Below the pieces are notes generated by a model, which saw only the letters and a list, made by a program, of their open reading frames with translations, was not told the DNA's origin and did no database searches. Position numbers and translations under genes: made by a program. From NCBI GenBank assembly GCA_030149205.1, contig JASBSB010000006.1:480001-512000 (forward strand): DNA of 32,000 nt, read 5' to 3'. Positions 1 to 31,354 of this stretch are shown one piece after another (the first letter of the stretch is position 1; each line of letters starts with the position of its first letter). This stretch comes from Candidatus Heimdallarchaeota archaeon. GTDB lineage: Archaea; Asgardarchaeota; Heimdallarchaeia; Heimdallarchaeales; Kariarchaeaceae.

Positions 1-66
1 TGCTGCCATGGGAATATTTTGTGAAGTTGCACCATTTCTTGACGTATCAGTATTTTTCATGTTCAT
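1..66 (-). CDS. 5' end of a gene running off the window edge (MNMKNTDTSRNGATSQNIPMAA...), product unknown
   Basis: ATG at 66, 4 nt after the PadR stop; the frame stays open to position 1. Confidence 0.45.
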   Translation of the reverse strand, partial: MNMKNTDTSRNGATSQNIPMAA

Positions 67-70
67 GATA

Positions 71-442
71 TCACCTTAACATTGATTTGAAATCAGATTC
101 AAATGTTGACAATACTTGAACCAGATCATTCTGCATCTGTTTCATTAGATCCCAGCTTGATTCTGAGGGATATATTGTTTTTCTGACTCGATTGTTTTCG
201 ATTTCGTTTTTAATTTTTACAAATCCCTGTTCTTCAAGTCTATTTATCGCAGAATAGATGGTGGGGAGAGGAGGAGTGTACTCTCCCCAATGGTTATGTA
301 ACTGCTTATAAACAAAATAAGCATGTGGTTTTTCAGGTGAGAATGATGCAAGATACAATATTGCAAGCTCCACTAAAGCACCCCTTAGTCTTCCATTCCA
401 AGACGTGAGATAGGATTGCACCTGTTCATCATTCTCACCCAT
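71..442 (-). CDS. PadR-family winged-helix transcriptional regulator
   Basis: LRGALVELAILYL...HAYFVYKQL...PTIYSAINRLEEQGFV...RVRKTIY matches the PadR wHTH pattern. Confidence 0.85.
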   Translation of the reverse strand: MGENDEQVQSYLTSWNGRLRGALVELAILYLASFSPEKPHAYFVYKQLHNHWGEYTPPLPTIYSAINRLEEQGFVKIKNEIENNRVRKTIYPSESSWDLMKQMQNDLVQVLSTFESDFKSMLR

Positions 443-22929: not shown

Positions 22930-23568
22930 ATGGTTGATGATTCTGTCCTTAGTGAGGAAGCAGGATATATCTATTCAAATTCCACTGGATTTGAACCAGT
23001 TAAAGGGAATTTATTAAGATGGGAAGGGATCCTTTCTGATTCTACTGGAACTTTGGTAAAAGTTTATGTTGACATACCTGATAACTTTCCAGATATTCCT
23101 CCAAGTATAACTATTGACCCATCTTATTCAACTCCAATAACTGACGCACAAGGAAAGCTATACACGAGAAGTATGAGAAGATGGAGACGAGGAATGCATG
23201 TACATCAAATATTAAAGGAGGTTGAGCTCCTGTTAAAACAGGTTAAAACCACAGGAAATGAAGAAACACAAAAATATCAAAATGCAATTCTATCGCATGA
23301 AAATTCACTTCAACGTCAAATAAACCAACTCAAAGAAAGAATTCAAACTAAACAGGTTGAGTTATCTTCTATCAAATCAAATTCACAACCTGTAACTCAG
23401 TTGACATCTGATGTCCTAAAACAATCTATGTCTGAAATTGAGGCAGAACTGTTTAGTTTGGAAGACGAATATGACAAAATCGAAATTTCTGATACTGAGT
23501 TTGCAAGAAAATTCGTAAGGCTCCGTAAAAAATATTACCTAATTGAAAGTGCAGTTACCTCAAGATAG
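22930..23568 (+). CDS. UEV (inactive E2-like) / coiled-coil / steadiness-box protein, TSG101/Vps23-Vps37-like (ESCRT-I)
   Basis: UBC-fold pattern W.G, IP..FP..PP, DAQGKLY, W...H..QIL..V..LL; no Cys in the protein; coiled coil; C-terminal L.DEY....IS..EF..KF..LRKKYY. Confidence 0.72.
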   Translation: MVDDSVLSEEAGYIYSNSTGFEPVKGNLLRWEGILSDSTGTLVKVYVDIPDNFPDIPPSITIDPSYSTPITDAQGKLYTRSMRRWRRGMHVHQILKEVELLLKQVKTTGNEETQKYQNAILSHENSLQRQINQLKERIQTKQVELSSIKSNSQPVTQLTSDVLKQSMSEIEAELFSLEDEYDKIEISDTEFARKFVRLRKKYYLIESAVTSR

Positions 23569-24943: not shown

Positions 24944-27511
24944 TTATTTTGATTTTTCTGTTACGAATTCCTTATAATTTGGAGAGATGGTTAAATCAAC
25001 GATACCTGTACCAAGGGTGATTTCTTGTCCTACAATAACGTTTTCAATGATACCTACAAGATTATCACGTTCTCCTCTTATCGAAGCATCTAAGAGATGT
25101 TTAACAGTAACTTCAAATGCAGCTCTGGCCAAAACCGAAGTGTTTTCTCCTGAGATCCCATGTCTCCCTATCTGTCGAATATCGCCTGAATAGGTCATTA
25201 AATCTGAAACAAGCATTAAGTGCCTCATGTCAACCTCTAATCCTTGTTTTTCCATAACTTCATTTGATTCACGGATGATTGCATTTCTTGCTGCCTCAAT
25301 GCCAAGAGTTTCTGCAATTTCATGGATATGGTTAGTATAAGATTTTTCTGGATCAACTCCAGGAATTCTTAGTACCTGTATAAAGTTAGAGCCTTCAGAG
25401 ATTATCTCGAATCTTTCTTCCTCTCCTTCCTTTGAGCTCTTCTTCTTGATCATAACTCGACTTACACCTTTTAGCCCCTTTATTGGGATAGCTCTAACTT
25501 TTTCAGATAATTTTTGGAGCTCTTGTAAGGTTGGGCTTTCTGCATTTGGATAAACCACAATTACGTTCCCATCAACTGAAGCTTTATACTTTCTTTTTTG
25601 AATTTTCTCTCTAACCTCTTCAGGTGTGACCCCTTTATCACTGAGAAGTTCTTTGTTTAAGCTGACATTAATGGTTAAATTGATTTGATCCGTCTCTAAC
25701 TTTTCTGCGAGATCATTTACAGTTGTTAATTCAATATTCTGGGCAACTTCCTTTGCCTTCTCCCTATTTGTTTCATATTCTGGTTCCAAAGCAACTGTCA
25801 TACTAGGAGTACTGGGTTTTTTCCTTGCATCAACAATCTCAATTAGACGTGGTAAACCAAGTGTTACATTCATCTCTCTAACACCTGCAAAGTGGAAGGT
25901 TCTTAGAGTATTATGTGTGACAACACCATCGGCCGTAACAAAAGTTTCACTCCCAGGAACCGAAAAATCGTATACATAAGTGGTGGGAGATTTGATTCTC
26001 TTGATGTTGGTTATCCTATCCCAAGTTACGTCACTATAGATTGCATTTTCAAGAATTAAAAGCTCTTCAGTTAATTCTGCTGAGTTCTTATGATTTTTCA
26101 AAGAGTTATAGATCTGTATTAATTCTGTTCTCTGTAGAGATGAAAAATTTTGGAAGCTGGTTTTAAGCTTAATATTTACAATTTCATTTAAATTCTCAAA
26201 GCCTGGAATAACATCAGTCTTTGTGGATTTAATCGAGTTTAATCCCAATACATATTGAAAATCATTTTCATTTACAATAAGAGAATAATTATTTTTATTG
26301 AACCTAGTAATAACTTCAAACATTGAGAACAACAAACCAATCATCTGTAGATTCCAATCAGAATGTACATTGATCCGATAGTCCATTCCCTCTAAAGAGG
26401 TTAATTCGGAGTATAATAAATGTTCAAGAAATTCAGCTCTGAAGTTTTCATCATGTTCCAATATGTCTACAGGAATTTTATAATCTGAGTTTTCCTCCAA
26501 ATTTCTAACTATTGTTAAAATTTCTACAGAAATATCGGTAGTATCAATTGATGCTTTAACTTTTCTCTCTAATTCTCTCAACGCAACTTGGACATTTCCA
26601 GAATTTCCATAGGTTAATTCACTTGAGATCTGTTGAGGAGAATGTTTTGGGAATTTCATCATCACTGGAATGCTATCCCCAATCTTTAGCATATTTCCCT
26701 TTATAGGAATAATAGAGTTTTTAGCTCTGACTACAAATGAATGAGATGGAGTTGCGATTATTGACCTTCCTGAGGCAAAATCAACTTTTATCAAATTTCC
26801 GTTAGGTTTATGCCTGCTTATCTCTGCAACCGGTAACCATTCAACCTTCTCAGTTTGAACCAGTGATGGAACCTGTAAATTAAGTTCAGTGACGTCACCA
26901 ATAAAACTATCATTTTCTTGAATTTTTTTAGATTCAGGTAAAAGATCAATCAGATCATTGACCAACTCCTCAAAAGTTAAAACCTGAATTTTATCTTTAA
27001 ATTGCACAATGATCCTTTCGTTTCCTGATATTGACATTTGTGTCCCAGGTTCTCCAATACTCTGTGCACTTACAACACCTGCTGCTGCACCAGGATCCAT
27101 TTCTGCAAAGGTGTATGATCGAAAGATCTCAAGCATTATGGTTTCAAATTGTTCTTGAGTGACATATGTTGAATTTTTATCTGGTTTAGATTTTGTGGCG
27201 TTGATTTCACTTGCACGCTCTTTTAATTTTGCCCTAAGTTGATTTAAGACATCAAGAGAAACCAAACGATCAGATCTATTCTGATAATCTGCTAATTGAG
27301 TCTCTATATCGTCAAACGAAAGATATCCATTACTTTTACCTGTTGCCTTCTTGGTAGTTTCCTTTTTAGTGGTTGACTTCTTGGTAGTTTCCTTTTTAGT
27401 GGTTGCCTTCTTGGTAGTTTCTTTTTTGGTGGTTGCCTTCTTGGTAGTTGCCTTTTTGGTGGTTGCCTTCTTAGCAGTTTCTTTCTTGGGTACGGTGCTT
27501 TTCTTTGCCAT
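24944..27511 (-). CDS. rpoA2: DNA-directed RNA polymerase subunit A'' (Rpo1C), intein-containing, with a Lys/Thr-rich N-terminal repeat
   Basis: AQSIGEPGTQM|intein|TLRTFHFAGV, TLGLPRLIE, TNHIHEI...LGIEAAR, VD.RHL.LV.D.MT, LARAAFE, ENVIVGQ. Confidence 0.96.
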   Translation of the reverse strand: MAKKSTVPKKETAKKATTKKATTKKATTKKETTKKATTKKETTKKSTTKKETTKKATGKSNGYLSFDDIETQLADYQNRSDRLVSLDVLNQLRAKLKERASEINATKSKPDKNSTYVTQEQFETIMLEIFRSYTFAEMDPGAAAGVVSAQSIGEPGTQMSISGNERIIVQFKDKIQVLTFEELVNDLIDLLPESKKIQENDSFIGDVTELNLQVPSLVQTEKVEWLPVAEISRHKPNGNLIKVDFASGRSIIATPSHSFVVRAKNSIIPIKGNMLKIGDSIPVMMKFPKHSPQQISSELTYGNSGNVQVALRELERKVKASIDTTDISVEILTIVRNLEENSDYKIPVDILEHDENFRAEFLEHLLYSELTSLEGMDYRINVHSDWNLQMIGLLFSMFEVITRFNKNNYSLIVNENDFQYVLGLNSIKSTKTDVIPGFENLNEIVNIKLKTSFQNFSSLQRTELIQIYNSLKNHKNSAELTEELLILENAIYSDVTWDRITNIKRIKSPTTYVYDFSVPGSETFVTADGVVTHNTLRTFHFAGVREMNVTLGLPRLIEIVDARKKPSTPSMTVALEPEYETNREKAKEVAQNIELTTVNDLAEKLETDQINLTINVSLNKELLSDKGVTPEEVREKIQKRKYKASVDGNVIVVYPNAESPTLQELQKLSEKVRAIPIKGLKGVSRVMIKKKSSKEGEEERFEIISEGSNFIQVLRIPGVDPEKSYTNHIHEIAETLGIEAARNAIIRESNEVMEKQGLEVDMRHLMLVSDLMTYSGDIRQIGRHGISGENTSVLARAAFEVTVKHLLDASIRGERDNLVGIIENVIVGQEITLGTGIVDLTISPNYKEFVTEKSK
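25910..27034 (-). mobile_element. Intein (375 aa, residues 160-534 of RpoA'') with degenerate LAGLIDADG homing endonuclease
   Basis: Interrupts GTQM/TLRTF. Starts SISGNE, block B I.ATPSHSF, ends VYDFSVPGSETFV.ADG.VTHN; +1 residue is Thr. Confidence 0.95.
27338..27487 (-). repeat. Tandem 15-bp (30-bp higher-order) repeat encoding 10 x KK[AES]T[TAG]
   Basis: TTGGTAGTTTCCTTTTTAGTGGTTGCCTTC-like 30-mers at 27351, 27381, 27411 and 27441. Confidence 0.95.
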
Positions 27512-30237
27512 TATTCTTCATCCTCACCTAATACTGTTTGTAGGATTACATCGATATTAACAGCTTTTCCATTATCACTTTTTGCTGGATCTATGTTATC
27601 CTCACCAAATTTGAACTGGATAATTTCACCAGTCGAATTTCTTACTGTTTTATCATAATTCGCGGTTAAATCTTGCATTGCATTTACCAATCTTCTTTGC
27701 ATATATCCACTAGAACTTGTACGGACAGCAGTATCTACTAATCCTTCTCTTCCACCACAAGCATGCATGAAAAACTCAATAGGCGTAAGACCTTTCCTAA
27801 AACTGGAATTAACAAATCCGTGAGCATCAGCAGAAAGATCTCCCCGGGTGAAATGAGGTAATGTTCTATCTTCATATCCTCTCATAATCCTGTTTCCACG
27901 GACAGATTGTTGCCCTACACAAGCACTCATCTGTGACAAGTTTAACATATTTCCTCTTGCACCAGTCTTTGCCATAATAACCGCCTCATTCGTCATACCA
28001 AGATATTCTGCGCTAACACTGCCGGCCTCATCACGAGCCTTTGCAAGTTCATCCTGAATCTTTGCTTCGAGAGATTCTCTTAAGGTATTTCCGGGAATAC
28101 GTTCTAATTTTCCAGAGTGAAACTCATCAATTAATTTATCTACATTTTCCTTTCGTTTCCCTATCTCAGAATCTATTCTCTCTCTACCTTCGATTGGAAC
28201 CTCAACTGCATCTACCCCAATTGTAAATCCACGTCTTGTGATATAGGCAGCAAGCATTTTAGTAATACCATCCAAAAATTTTCTTGTGGCATTTGTACCA
28301 AACTCCTTTAAAATTCGATGTAATACAGAATTAGGCACCTCAGCACCAAACCCTTGCTTATCAATTACCCCTGCAATTAGTTTTCCATTTTTAATAATAA
28401 CATAACCATCTGTTGGACATCTCTCCTTTAGACATTTTCCATCTGGTTGAGTCTTATCACAGACACATAGTTTATTCTTCATAGAAAAATTAAGTTCTTT
28501 TGGGAGCAATGTACTAAACAGAGTACGTCCGGACCATAATGGTGTACCATCAATGGTTTTTTTATCAGGTTCAGGCATCTCCCAAACATCAGCAGCCGTG
28601 AGTAGTTCACTCGCAGTTCTCTTTTCAAGATAAGTCCCACTTTTTGTTAAGAAATATGAAGCTGTGATAAAGTCCTGAATTGCTCCTATAATTGGGCCTC
28701 CGTACCTTGGTGTACTGATCTGTTCTTGAACCTTCATAAGTATATTCGCTTCTGCTCTTGCCTCTTCACTCTGAGGGACATGAAGATTCATCTCATCTCC
28801 ATCAAAGTCAGCATTATAAGGCCTACAAACACAAAGATTTAATCTAAAGGTCTTATAAGGCATCACTTTGACTTCATGAGCCATAATTGACATTCGATGC
28901 AGACTTGGTTGACGGTTAAACAGTACAATATCACCATCTCTAAGGTGACGTTCTATAATAAAACCAGGTCTCAGGGATTCAGAAACTATAGATGGATCAC
29001 GAGCAAACCTAAGGTCGATACGTCTCCCATCATCTCTAATAATATAATTTACCCCAGGATCACCCTTTGGTCCCTGCATAACCAACTCTTTCATTTCCTC
29101 TATATTCCATTCTGTCACCCTTTCTGGAACTGTCAGAATTTCTGCGATTTCCTTGGGGACACCCACCTGATTTATTGAGAGTAACGGATCTGGAGAGACA
29201 ACAGTACGGGCTGAAAAATCAACACGCTTACCGCTTAAGTTAGAACGGAATCTACCCTCTTTACCTTTTAATCTTTGAGTCAGAGTTCGTAAAGCTCTCC
29301 CACTCCTATGTCTCGCTGGAGGAATTCCACTAACTTCATTATCTAGATAAGTTGTGACGTGGTATTGGAGAAGCTCCCATAAATCCTCAACAATTAATTG
29401 AGGAGCACCTGATTCTCTATTATCATAAAGTCGTTGGTTTATTCGTATGATGTCAACAAGTTTATGTGTTAAATCATCCTCTGATCTTATCCCTGAATCT
29501 AGTGTGATACTTGGTCTTACGGATACTGGAGGAACAGGTAATACATCTAAAATCATCCATTCAGGTCTTGCATTCTCAGCATCAATTCCAAGAAGTAAGG
29601 CATCGTCATCTGGTATCAGCTTAAGTCTACCTTGAACTTCCAAAGCAGAAATTTTATCAACTACTTTGTTTCCATTAGCGGTTTCAAATTCTTCATTATA
29701 TGTAGTTGGTTTTTCTAATCTAACTTTATGCTGGAACTCCCCACAATGAGGACAGCCGTGACCTTCATCACCACCCTTTGGGTTAATCAGTTGATCACGT
29801 GCCTTTTTAGCCTTCTTCCATATTTGTTCCAAAAGTAACTGATCTAGTGTACCTGTTTCCTCTCGTCCCTGTCTTAGTTTGTTTACATAGAAAGTTACCT
29901 GCCGCTGGGGCAATACAATCCTTGAACATTTTCTACAAACTACTTGGAGGATCTTATATATTGTTTTGTTGAACCCCACGTGCACAATTGGTCTTTGTAA
30001 TTCTATATGACCAAAGTGCCCCGGACAGCCACCGATCCTATTTCCACAGGTAGTACATCTGGTACCAGGGTCTATCGTCCCTAATGCCGAATCCATTAAC
30101 CCATGAGGAATTGGTGTCCCATCCTCGTCAAATGTGTCTGCTGTAATAATACGTTGGACACTCATCTTTCGGATTTCATCTGGTGATAAAAGTCCGAACC
30201 TTATTGCTGCAATAGATTTAGGTAAATTGTAAGCCAT
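27511..30237 (-). CDS. rpoA1: DNA-directed RNA polymerase subunit A' (Rpo1N)
   Basis: C..C...CPGHFGHIEL, GKRVDFSARTV, NRQPSLH, catalytic NADFDGDEMN, DTAVRT.SSGYMQRRL. ATG at 30237 with a GGGTG SD. Stop overlaps the rpoA2 start (TAATG). Confidence 0.97.
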   Translation of the reverse strand: MAYNLPKSIAAIRFGLLSPDEIRKMSVQRIITADTFDEDGTPIPHGLMDSALGTIDPGTRCTTCGNRIGGCPGHFGHIELQRPIVHVGFNKTIYKILQVVCRKCSRIVLPQRQVTFYVNKLRQGREETGTLDQLLLEQIWKKAKKARDQLINPKGGDEGHGCPHCGEFQHKVRLEKPTTYNEEFETANGNKVVDKISALEVQGRLKLIPDDDALLLGIDAENARPEWMILDVLPVPPVSVRPSITLDSGIRSEDDLTHKLVDIIRINQRLYDNRESGAPQLIVEDLWELLQYHVTTYLDNEVSGIPPARHRSGRALRTLTQRLKGKEGRFRSNLSGKRVDFSARTVVSPDPLLSINQVGVPKEIAEILTVPERVTEWNIEEMKELVMQGPKGDPGVNYIIRDDGRRIDLRFARDPSIVSESLRPGFIIERHLRDGDIVLFNRQPSLHRMSIMAHEVKVMPYKTFRLNLCVCRPYNADFDGDEMNLHVPQSEEARAEANILMKVQEQISTPRYGGPIIGAIQDFITASYFLTKSGTYLEKRTASELLTAADVWEMPEPDKKTIDGTPLWSGRTLFSTLLPKELNFSMKNKLCVCDKTQPDGKCLKERCPTDGYVIIKNGKLIAGVIDKQGFGAEVPNSVLHRILKEFGTNATRKFLDGITKMLAAYITRRGFTIGVDAVEVPIEGRERIDSEIGKRKENVDKLIDEFHSGKLERIPGNTLRESLEAKIQDELAKARDEAGSVSAEYLGMTNEAVIMAKTGARGNMLNLSQMSACVGQQSVRGNRIMRGYEDRTLPHFTRGDLSADAHGFVNSSFRKGLTPIEFFMHACGGREGLVDTAVRTSSSGYMQRRLVNAMQDLTANYDKTVRNSTGEIIQFKFGEDNIDPAKSDNGKAVNIDVILQTVLGEDEE

Positions 30238-30423
30238 GTCACACCCACGGAATTGTGATTGAAAAAAAAAAGCTCTTCGAGACAATTTGAAGAACTTTTA
30301 GATATATCTTAACCTATTGGAGAATCAATTTTATTAAAGTATTAAGATGCCTCGCGCATAAAGTTAGGCATAAAAACCCTTTTTTTATGAAAGAAACTTT
30401 TAACCAAATTCAAGAGAAATTTA

Positions 30424-30945
30424 TCATTCTTTTGTCTTAAGTTTCTCCTTTTCTTCTTTTGCCTTTTCTCGTTGAAGAATAAAGCTATGAGTAAACTGAT
30501 AAAGCCACTCCATAATTTCTAACGATACAGATGGCTTGTTCTCAAATACATTCCAACCCCTATCATAAATTCGATTCAAACTCAGAGATTCAATAATTTG
30601 GGAACGGCTTAAAGACCCTATTTGAGTAGTCTCTGGAATTACTATCGCAAGTGGTAAGGCCTTATCCTCGGTTTGCCAAATAAAATCTTTCCAAAAGGAT
30701 TTCCTGATTTCTATCACTAAATCATCATCGACATCAAGATTTAGAACAATAGCATCAACTGAACTATTAGAGAAATTTTTCTTCCATTTGGAAAAGGATT
30801 CGACTTCTTCAACCAACCATTCCGTCTTATCGTCAGAGGATTCATTTAATGAATCAAACAGACTTTTTGGCTTTCCAACCTTAAGATATAGGATTTTAGG
30901 ATGGATGATTGAATACTTATTAAAGGCGAATCGAAGAGTATCCAT
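30424..30945 (-). CDS. Arf/Arl-like small-GTPase-fold protein with degenerate G motifs (putative pseudo-GTPase)
   Basis: WKKNF...VDAIVL.LD, LPLAIV, LS.SQI.ESL.LNRI.DRGWNVF and MEWL echo the Arf/Arl C-terminal half. Start could be ATG 30945 or 31035. Confidence 0.6.
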   Translation of the reverse strand: MDTLRFAFNKYSIIHPKILYLKVGKPKSLFDSLNESSDDKTEWLVEEVESFSKWKKNFSNSSVDAIVLNLDVDDDLVIEIRKSFWKDFIWQTEDKALPLAIVIPETTQIGSLSRSQIIESLSLNRIYDRGWNVFENKPSVSLEIMEWLYQFTHSFILQREKAKEEKEKLKTKE

Positions 30946-31354
30946 AATTGAAATATTAAATAGACTTATAATAACTCTTCTTTTTGAATCCCAATGAAGA
31001 ATTAAAGTATTTTCATTAAAGGTTTTTATTAACATTGCTAAAAAATAAAAAAAAGATTACCCTCTCAATATTTAACATCAAAAAATAAAAAGTCTAAAAT
31101 GTGTTTAAGCGTCAAAATATAAAGAAAAAGAAAGGAATAATTGTAATTTATTACCTTATATGATTTTATTTGAAATGTTATTTTTTAGATTTGATCATTA
31201 ACCATTCTCAAGTAATAAAATTCTTTAGAAAATTTAAATCAAAGAGAACTAGAAAATACTATACTATTCTAAAAGGTTCAAACTCAAATTCAACCCCCAT
31301 AGGTTAACAACATTAATAACAACACATATAAATTCAAGAAAGGAAGGATTTACA

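Follow-up and report, generated by a model that had tools for sequence, protein, structure and literature searches.

The locus and its coding frame

The window analysed here is the whole of a stretch of 32,000 nucleotides (nt) from Candidatus Heimdallarchaeota archaeon (assembly GCA_030149205.1, contig JASBSB010000006.1, positions 480,001 to 512,000). Close to its end, on the minus strand, lies a gene for a small protein which we call AL, for Arf-like pseudo-GTPase; the label is used for both gene and protein. The gene sits directly 5' of rpoA', on the same strand, and diverges from a membrane FKBP gene. Profile comparisons and structure prediction indicate that AL is a descendant of an Asgard ArfR-type small GTPase, which has lost its guanine-nucleotide motifs and is found in many relatives at the head of a five-gene block encoding a putative AAA+ machine.

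The longest open frame has 203 codons (30424..31035, minus strand). The start of 13 out of 14 close homologues falls at the position of Met31 of this frame, and therefore the 173-residue version is the likely coding sequence (Table 1). Residue numbers below are those of the 173-residue protein unless the 203-residue frame is named. The upstream extension is probably untranslated, and probably contains the promoter of AL itself. When the 203-residue frame was folded without an alignment, the mean predicted local distance difference test score (pLDDT) was 39.7, and there was no confident N-terminal domain. The sequence TTATTATAA lies at −29 to −21 relative to the ATG of Met31 (30966-30974, minus strand), and a purine-rich run resembling a B recognition element (BRE), AAAAAGAAGAG, lies immediately 5' of it at 30975-30985. 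Judged by the known BRE/TATA spacing of archaeal promoters, this arrangement fits a promoter for a leaderless AL mRNA. On the other side of the gene, the 186-nt spacer between AL and rpoA' contains an oligo-T run, GGGTTTTTA, a TATA-like sequence, AAGATATATC, and GGTG right before the rpoA' ATG, which suggests that the AL transcript ends here and that rpoA' is initiated separately.

Predicted fold and Arf ancestry

The AlphaFold2 model of AL, made from an alignment of 18 sequences, has a pLDDT of 89.1 and a predicted template modelling score of 0.82. The predicted core is an Arf-type α/β fold with a five-stranded parallel sheet. All 50 matches listed by Foldseek for this model belong to the Arf family, with Arl1 (8.5e-7), HodArfR1 (9.1e-7) and Arl6 on top. 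A comparison with 48,161 chains using VIA-align gave a similar picture: the best match is Arf6 (Z 13.9, root-mean-square deviation 2.6, 138 residues aligned), followed by Arl13B (Z 13.3), HodArfR1 (13.1), Arl8 (12.9) and Sar1 (12.7). The Arf family accounts for nine of the ten best chains, with Z from 12.4 to 13.9, while SR-beta and Rag-like GTPases score about 11.5 and CheY-like or flavodoxin-like folds about 10.

From the single sequence the Arf signal is borderline. AL matches the Pfam Arf family (PF00025) with 17.0 bits and an E-value of 0.0042 (16.6 bits and 0.0058 for the 203-residue frame), which is below the gathering threshold of 22.3 bits, and phmmer against the PDB finds Arl1 and Arl3 with E-values of about 0.01 each. 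In these alignments, residues 84-180 of the 203-residue frame pair with residues 65-162 of Arl1, and also with Arl3. The family gives a clearer signal. A profile of 18 members matches 85 PDB chains, and the best 60 of the 85 are all Arf family; the top match is yeast Arl1 (E-value 8.7e-8), while chains of the Asgard ArfR structures 8ouk, 8oul, 8oum and 8oun also appear within these 60. In a Pfam scan of the same 18 members, Arf is the sole family matched by several of them (6/18 with E-values up to 1, the best being 1.6e-6). An alignment of 22 AL members compared using hhalign with seven Asgard ArfR-type GTPases gives a probability of 97.6% (E-value 3.6e-12, 114 columns). By profile score, the best active relatives of AL are ArfR-type proteins from f5 and f7 genomes, at 36-39 bits. 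Against the small GTPases encoded in the genome of the window, including the ArfR-like paralogue L090, the AL profile gives no score above 6.5 bits. In a tree of 42 sequences, made without a eukaryotic Arf set or a reference ArfR set, AL forms a separate monophyletic clade on a long branch (Shimodaira-Hasegawa-like approximate likelihood ratio support of 100), on an unresolved base with ArfR-type sequences.

These results bear out the initial annotation, which had read an Arf/Arl-like C-terminal half from the sequence: the stretches that it quoted are the ones aligned by HMMER, and they are upheld by the family profile and hhalign. The model likewise has the G-domain fold that it expected, and the charged C-terminal helix that it proposed is a long one, predicted as residues 140-172. 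A 1590-residue library protein, P0015, matches residues 131-173 of the 203-residue frame in eight stretches. The matched part is the start of the C-terminal helix (101-143 in 173-residue numbering), and the similarity is probably compositional or due to a coiled coil.

The N-terminus was examined for an Arf-like amphipathic helix, using hydrophobic moments of 22 members, and AL does not stand above shuffled sequences. Its best 11-residue N-terminal segment has a moment of 0.43, which is matched by 26% of shuffles; only one of the 22 members has an N-terminal amphipathicity reached by fewer than 5% of shuffles, and the f6 members have nine residues before β1. The model has a pLDDT of 49 over residues 1-10. 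It is worth adding that the diverged f4 form of AL, which is described below, starts MGSFLDMLLGRL, which calls to mind the way eukaryotic Arfs begin, with Met-Gly and a hydrophobic helix. To our knowledge, archaea do not myristoylate proteins.

Loss of the nucleotide-binding motifs

The alignment produced by hhalign allows the fate of each motif to be followed. The G3 sequence DIGGQ of ArfR-type proteins is replaced by L44-V45-E46-E47-V48 in AL, the G4 sequence NKQD by P104-E105-T106-T107, and the G5 sequence SAK by K137-P138-S139. A G1 motif (GxxxxGK[ST]) is present in 0/45 AL members and in 7/7 ArfR controls, and the same counts were obtained for a strict G3. In the columns homologous to G3 and G4, no member has D..G or [NT]KxD. 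The loop after β1 is short, and reads L-K-V-G-K-P-K-S in the window protein; across the family it is often [RK]-[VI]-G-x, with K, N, R, Q, S or E at the position of the lysine.

The loss extends to the switch region. In the model, α1 (30-36) runs directly into the β3-equivalent strand (42-48), and switch I and β2 are absent; the alignment has the same short link in families f1, f2 and f6. The threonine that contacts Mg and the γ-phosphate of small GTPases sits in the switch I/β2 region. Since switch I, β2 and all of the guanine-nucleotide motifs are gone, AL is most likely nucleotide-free and unable to act as a switch. The erasure of G1, G3 and G4 and the shortened switch region had both been noted from the window sequence, and both hold, the motif erasure position by position; the motif loss, whose conservation had been proposed as a check, proves to be family-wide over the 45 members.

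AL keeps two tryptophans flanking the former switch II, a 'FWE..IW' motif in α3 with W85 and W90 invariant, a 'LSLIRLTDRPW' motif before β6 with L123 and D128 invariant, and W147 in α5, which is followed by the long charged helix.

Conservation and distribution

When 1.84 billion protein representatives were searched exhaustively with HMMER, 19 relatives of AL were found; a word-indexed protein search returned the self match alone. Within the same GTDB order, a single-protein search finds one copy of AL in 37/41 genomes. The profile was then run over 301 evenly sampled Asgard genomes. Strong matches (E-values of 1e-33 or better) were found in 10/10 genomes of family f1, 28/29 of f2, 1/1 of f3 and 10/11 of f6, and a diverged form of 158-170 residues in 3/3 of f4, with E-values from 6e-13 to 1.5e-6. 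All five are GTDB families of the class Heimdallarchaeia, f6 being outside the order of the window. Matches outside these families are all weak, at 23-38 bits, and the seven that were read proved to be active GTPases of the ArfR type, their motifs intact. AL is thus a conserved, single-copy, monophyletic family of five GTDB families.

AL frames were read directly in 29 loci and are open, and the remaining genome matches also fall within open frames. The sequence itself evolves fast, with 37-39% identity within a genus compared to 74-75% for the neighbouring AAA+ gene C1. Such conservation implies a working pseudo-GTPase, not a decaying gene.

One further type of protein was seen in these searches. 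An active ArfR-type GTPase with intact motifs carries a C-terminal extension of about 130 residues in genome G193 (Table 1). Similar extended frames of 310-347 residues occur in f5 and f6 genomes, and the type recurs in several genomes of Heimdallarchaeia.

A conserved five-gene operon

Open reading frames were clustered in 20 loci from relatives and in the window, giving 21 loci from f1 and f2; the genomes are related, and the counts are thus not independent events. The order AL-C1-C2-C4-C3, on one strand, is found in 16/21 of these loci and in 6/6 loci of f6, a total of 22. The gap between AL and C1 ranges from −11 to 96 nt (23 loci). The genes flanking the block differ among f1, f2 and f6, and the five-gene block alone is common to all three. 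C1 is found in the same five families as AL, and in 0/246 of the other Asgard genomes sampled.

C1, the AAA+ protein, gives signals for AAA_5, Sigma54_activat and Mg_chelatase, and the nearest model to C2, the vWA (von Willebrand factor A) protein, is the cobaltochelatase TIGR02442 (E-value 4.9e-7). Both remain below the curated cut-off of every Pfam and NCBIfam family that they match. Profile searches of the PDB with C1, C2 and C4 gave nothing significant, and neither did an Atlas search with C4. Between the genome of the window and its congener G001, identity is 75% for C1, 68% for C2 and 64% for C4, compared to 39% for AL and 41% for C3.

In this genome the order is rpoA'(−) AL(−) FKBP(+) SerK-like(+) C1(+), with the tightly packed genes C1-C2-C4-C3 beginning 866 nt past the end of the window. 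The FKBP gene (cluster 5) is the upstream neighbour of AL throughout f1, and adjoins it in ten loci. A single inversion of the SerK-like/FKBP/AL block, starting from the order seen in genome G007, yields the local order. From this comparison it appears that an inversion turned AL away from the operon and placed it beside rpoA', and that AL now has its own promoter. In two congeners from genus g1 (G001 and G003), AL and the operon lie on separate contigs, and the AL slot upstream of C1 is occupied by a protein of 193-194 residues, which combines a CxxC...CxxC zinc ribbon with a C-terminal half that is helical.

The genes on either side of the five-gene block in f1 encode a homologue of the ADP-dependent serine kinase SerK (NCBIfam NF053625, 3.6e-31, below the cut-off) and a serine hydroxymethyltransferase. 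These neighbours from serine metabolism have no obvious link to the block.

Two possible identities for the operon were considered. A likeness of C1, C2 and C4 to the PrkA-YeaH-SpoVR system is without support at sequence level: the Pfam families SpoVR and DUF444 have no match in this genome at E-values up to 10, and hhalign gives a probability of 2.4% for C1 against E. coli YeaG and 0.3% for C2 against YeaH, confined to the Walker A and MIDAS (metal-ion-dependent adhesion site) stretches. The operon was also considered as a defence system and rejected as such; its best PADLOC match is no better than E 7e-4, and the genes are inherited stably in both order and sequence.

Table 1. Features of the AL locus, of the AL model and of related loci. 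Positions without a prefix are those of the window; residues are those of the 173-residue protein; prefixes L, G and C denote loci, genomes and contigs (G000 is the genome of the window).
Feature	Position	Strand	Size	Basis or description
AL, likely coding sequence	30424..30945	-	173 aa + TGA stop	start at internal Met
Upstream in-frame extension of the longest AL frame	30946..31035	-	30 codons	homologue starts
Archaeal promoter-like element upstream of AL	30966..30985	-		read from sequence
Spacer, AL stop to rpoA' start	30238..30423	-	186 nt	sequence
rpoA' (RNA polymerase subunit A'), downstream neighbour of AL	27511..30237	-		open reading frame; Pfam RNA_pol_Rpb1_2 at G000:C2:508729-509232
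Membrane FKBP gene, divergent from AL in this genome	31355..31993	+		Pfam FKBP_C, 3.3e-14
AL model, N-terminal part	β1 17-23; α1 30-36; β3-equivalent 42-48; β4 65-70			AlphaFold2
AL model, C-terminal part	α3 77-92; β5 99-103; α4 114-120; β6 131-135; α5 and charged tail 140-172			AlphaFold2
C1-C2-C4-C3 in this genome	L139:2866-8126	+
C1			514 aa	divergent AAA+ ATPase of the AAA_5/Mg-chelatase/sigma54 group; GPTGEAKT, VVNEIQR, Cys4 insert (zinc ribbon)
C2			459 aa	vWA domain with DxSxS MIDAS motif; VWA_2
C4			505 aa	no relatives detected
C3			268 aa	PBS-type HEAT-repeat protein
Serine-metabolism flank in f1, SerK-like	L139:2057-2788	+
Serine-metabolism flank in f1, cluster 22	e.g. L118:50-1405
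Protein in the AL slot, G001 and G003	L148:8623-9207; L149:8510-9091	-	193-194 aa	zinc ribbon, helical C-terminal half
Diverged f4 form of AL	L157:1871-2383; L158:1923-2411
ArfR-type GTPase with C-terminal extension	L159:854-1822	+		G193; motifs intact
Small GTPase upstream of rpoB	L115:1327-1992	-	221 aa	G000, contig C8
rpoB	starts L115:2180	+
rpoA''	24944-27511	-	855 aa	intein-like insert
rpoA' frame in G002	G002:C170:3374-5377		1422 aa	Rpb1_2 domain split
UEV/E2-variant and Mod(r) matches	22930-23568	+		ESCRT-I Vps23/Vps37-like

Proposed function and alternatives

We think it probable that AL is a nucleotide-independent adaptor or scaffold, fixed in a single state, which forms a subunit of the AAA+/vWA machine encoded by C1 to C4. 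The proposal starts from what is observed above, namely descent from the Arf family, the fold, the loss of the motifs, the conservation, the position in the operon and the matching phyletic range; the nucleotide independence, the association and the choice of partner are inferred. Ancestrally AL is the first gene of the operon AL-C1-C2-C4-C3, and its product would dock onto one of the operon partners and provide a surface that binds a target or a cellular site. Helical-repeat effectors are common binding partners of Arf and Arl proteins, and AL and C3 evolve equally fast; for these reasons the HEAT protein C3 is our first guess for the direct partner. A second guess is the MIDAS site of the vWA protein C2, which might be reached through the invariant D128 of AL.

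Several points weigh against this proposal. The physical association of AL with the operon proteins is something that we infer; co-occurrence across related genomes represents few independent events; and the AAA+/vWA machine is itself uncharacterised. On at least three occasions, too, AL and the operon have come apart (in genus g1, in G013 of f3 and in f4), which implies that AL does not need co-transcription and may have an independent role. Finally, many f1 members keep a G-K-[TA] remnant after β1, which could form a weak non-canonical ligand site.

The first of the alternatives, which we regard as rather unlikely, is that AL is a nucleotide-free scaffold that stands alone, with partners elsewhere, for example in membrane or trafficking-like systems, and that its place before the operon is inherited gene order. 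The retention of AL after these separations, its apparent promoter in this genome and its much faster evolution than that of C1, C2 and C4 are all in keeping with such a role. However, AL sits tight on C1 and on the same strand in 22 loci of f1, f2 and f6 whose flanks are otherwise different, and the phyletic ranges of AL and C1 are identical in the 301-genome sample.

It is improbable that AL has retained some non-canonical binding of a nucleotide or other small ligand, and through it serves the AAA+/vWA machine as a regulated switch. The G-K-[TA] remnant points in this direction, as does the fact that some pseudo-GTPases, such as the p190RhoGAP N-terminal domain, bind GTP without hydrolysing it (PMC10211241). 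Yet the lysine of the remnant is not conserved and the loop is shorter than a P-loop, while the G4 specificity motif and the Asp and Gly of G3 are replaced in all members, and switch I and β2 are deleted.

A further possibility arises from the position of the gene, which the initial annotation described as the place where rpoB normally is, with the conservation of linkage to rpoA' as a point to be checked. AL would then be a transcription-related factor in the place of rpoB, working with RNA polymerase. This we consider very improbable. AL is indeed directly 5' of rpoA' here, and it lies 3-9 kb from rpoA' in seven other f1 genomes, but in these seven AL and rpoA' are encoded on opposite strands and separated by further genes, and in f2 there is no linkage (distances of 246 kb and 43 kb in the two complete genomes). 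Nor is AL connected to the absence of rpoB. In this genome rpoB is on another contig than rpoA', and the two are separate in every genome of the order where both could be placed: in f1 they are found on different contigs, in genus g11 they share a contig at a distance of about 13 kb, and in the same two complete genomes they are 45 kb and 266 kb apart. The classical archaeal rpoH-B-A'-A'' operon is thus broken lineage-wide in this order, with or without AL nearby, and the signals in the spacer suggest separate transcription of rpoA'. That AL seems to replace rpoB is an accident of rearrangement, and the site beside rpoA' carries no conserved meaning; the linkage is restricted to f1, mostly on the opposite strand.

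That AL is a convergent CheY-like or flavodoxin-like domain, or else a decaying pseudogene, is hardly credible: a sheet without β2 does have the flavodoxin-like order 2-1-3-4-5, and chains of these folds reach Z of about 10, but the profiles match the Arf family specifically and Arf-family fold matches lead by about 3 Z units, while the frames are open throughout and the motifs described above invariant.

Some other features were noted around the polymerase genes. A small GTPase gene lies divergently just upstream of rpoB in this genome. Its motifs are intact and unusual (GPAGAGKT, AVAGQ, LNKTD), and it has an MglA-like look. There are about 27 Arf-Pfam matches in the genome, and for this reason the presence of a GTPase-fold gene upstream of both of the large-subunit genes is probably due to chance. 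The product of rpoA'' contains an intein-like insert ending ...VVTHN, followed by T. In the relative G002, the Rpb1_2 domain of rpoA' is split within its open frame, which suggests an intein. The closest matches to rpoA' of the window come from Heimdallarchaeota metagenome-assembled genomes, at 64-67% identity. Elsewhere in the window, a protein resembling ESCRT-I Vps23/Vps37 confirms its Asgard character.

Comparison with known systems

The Asgard ArfR GTPases HodArfR1 and GerdArfR1 have been described recently, and only as active GTPases, in work that defines no family like AL (bioRxiv 10.1101/2024.02.28.582541). AL has the same fold as ArfR, Arf and Arl proteins (Z 13.1 to HodArfR1 and 13.9 to Arf6) and shares with ArfR its lineage, the Heimdallarchaeia. 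Sequence homology is detectable from β3 to α5, and includes Arf-type signatures: the two tryptophans at the former switch II, 'L.L..L.DR.W' before β6, and 'WL' in α5. AL differs from all of these proteins in having no G1, G3, G4, G5, switch I or β2, and hence no interswitch toggle, and also in its longer charged C-terminal helix, its AAA+/vWA operon and its own long-branch clade.

With a G-domain fold, lost nucleotide motifs and conservation across the family, as known from sequence and model, AL is by description a pseudo-GTPase. The nucleotide-free pseudo-GTPases CENP-M and two domains of p190RhoGAP are eukaryotic, and are not derived from Arf (PMC10211241). They resemble AL in their G-domain fold, in the loss of nucleotide motifs and in a presumed role as structural or scaffold subunits. 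They differ from it in coming from Rab/Ras/Rho-like stock and in being eukaryotic, whereas AL comes from the Arf branch and is archaeal and operon-encoded. The Fbx4 G-like domain (Z 10.7) and Irc6p (Z 10.2) are also among the VIA-align matches to AL. A literature search found no paper tying pseudo-GTPases to archaeal genes of the AL kind.

Known pairs of AAA+ and vWA proteins include RavA-ViaA, CbbQ-CbbO, NorQ-NorD, ChlI-ChlD and CobS-CobT. C1 and C2 resemble such MoxR-vWA and chelatase pairs in combining an ATPase of the AAA_5/Mg_chelatase type with a MIDAS-containing vWA protein, encoded by adjacent genes. Unlike them, C1 and C2 are below curated cut-offs, and their operon contains a gene for a small-GTPase fold. 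We know of no MoxR-vWA or chelatase pair that includes a subunit of this kind. The operonic linkage and co-distribution of AL are those expected of an accessory subunit of a MoxR/chelatase-type AAA+/vWA system. A search of the literature found no paper naming MoxR, vWA and Asgard together.

The Arl2-TBCD chaperone module provides an example of an Arf-family protein stably paired with a HEAT-repeat protein in a remodelling assembly, and the fold searches with AL also matched Arl2 in the TBC-D complexes 9m1i and 9edr. The comparison with AL and C3 is an analogy only: Arl2 is an active GTPase, and C3 is a PBS-type HEAT protein with no sign of kinship to TBCD.

Significance

The position of AL beside rpoA' is tempting to read as a functional association, and the comparison with related genomes corrects that reading as wrong. 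The operon offers a different context. As the small, soluble product of a first gene, AL provides a handle on the targets of an uncharacterised AAA+/vWA machine of Heimdallarchaeia. If tied to the AAA+/vWA/HEAT operon, it would have no predecessor among archaeal pseudo-GTPases of the Arf type in the literature that we found.

GTPases of the Arf family have a central part in the membrane traffic of eukaryotes, and the Heimdallarchaeia are the archaeal group closest to eukaryotes. We suggest, tentatively and as a possibility only, that AL is an integral, nucleotide-independent subunit of an undescribed AAA+/vWA/HEAT remodelling complex, confined to part of the Heimdallarchaeia. If this is true, it would provide a parallel to the Arf-like/HEAT chaperone or coat modules of eukaryotes, and would mean that the Arf fold was used as a permanent scaffold, and not only as a switch, before eukaryogenesis.

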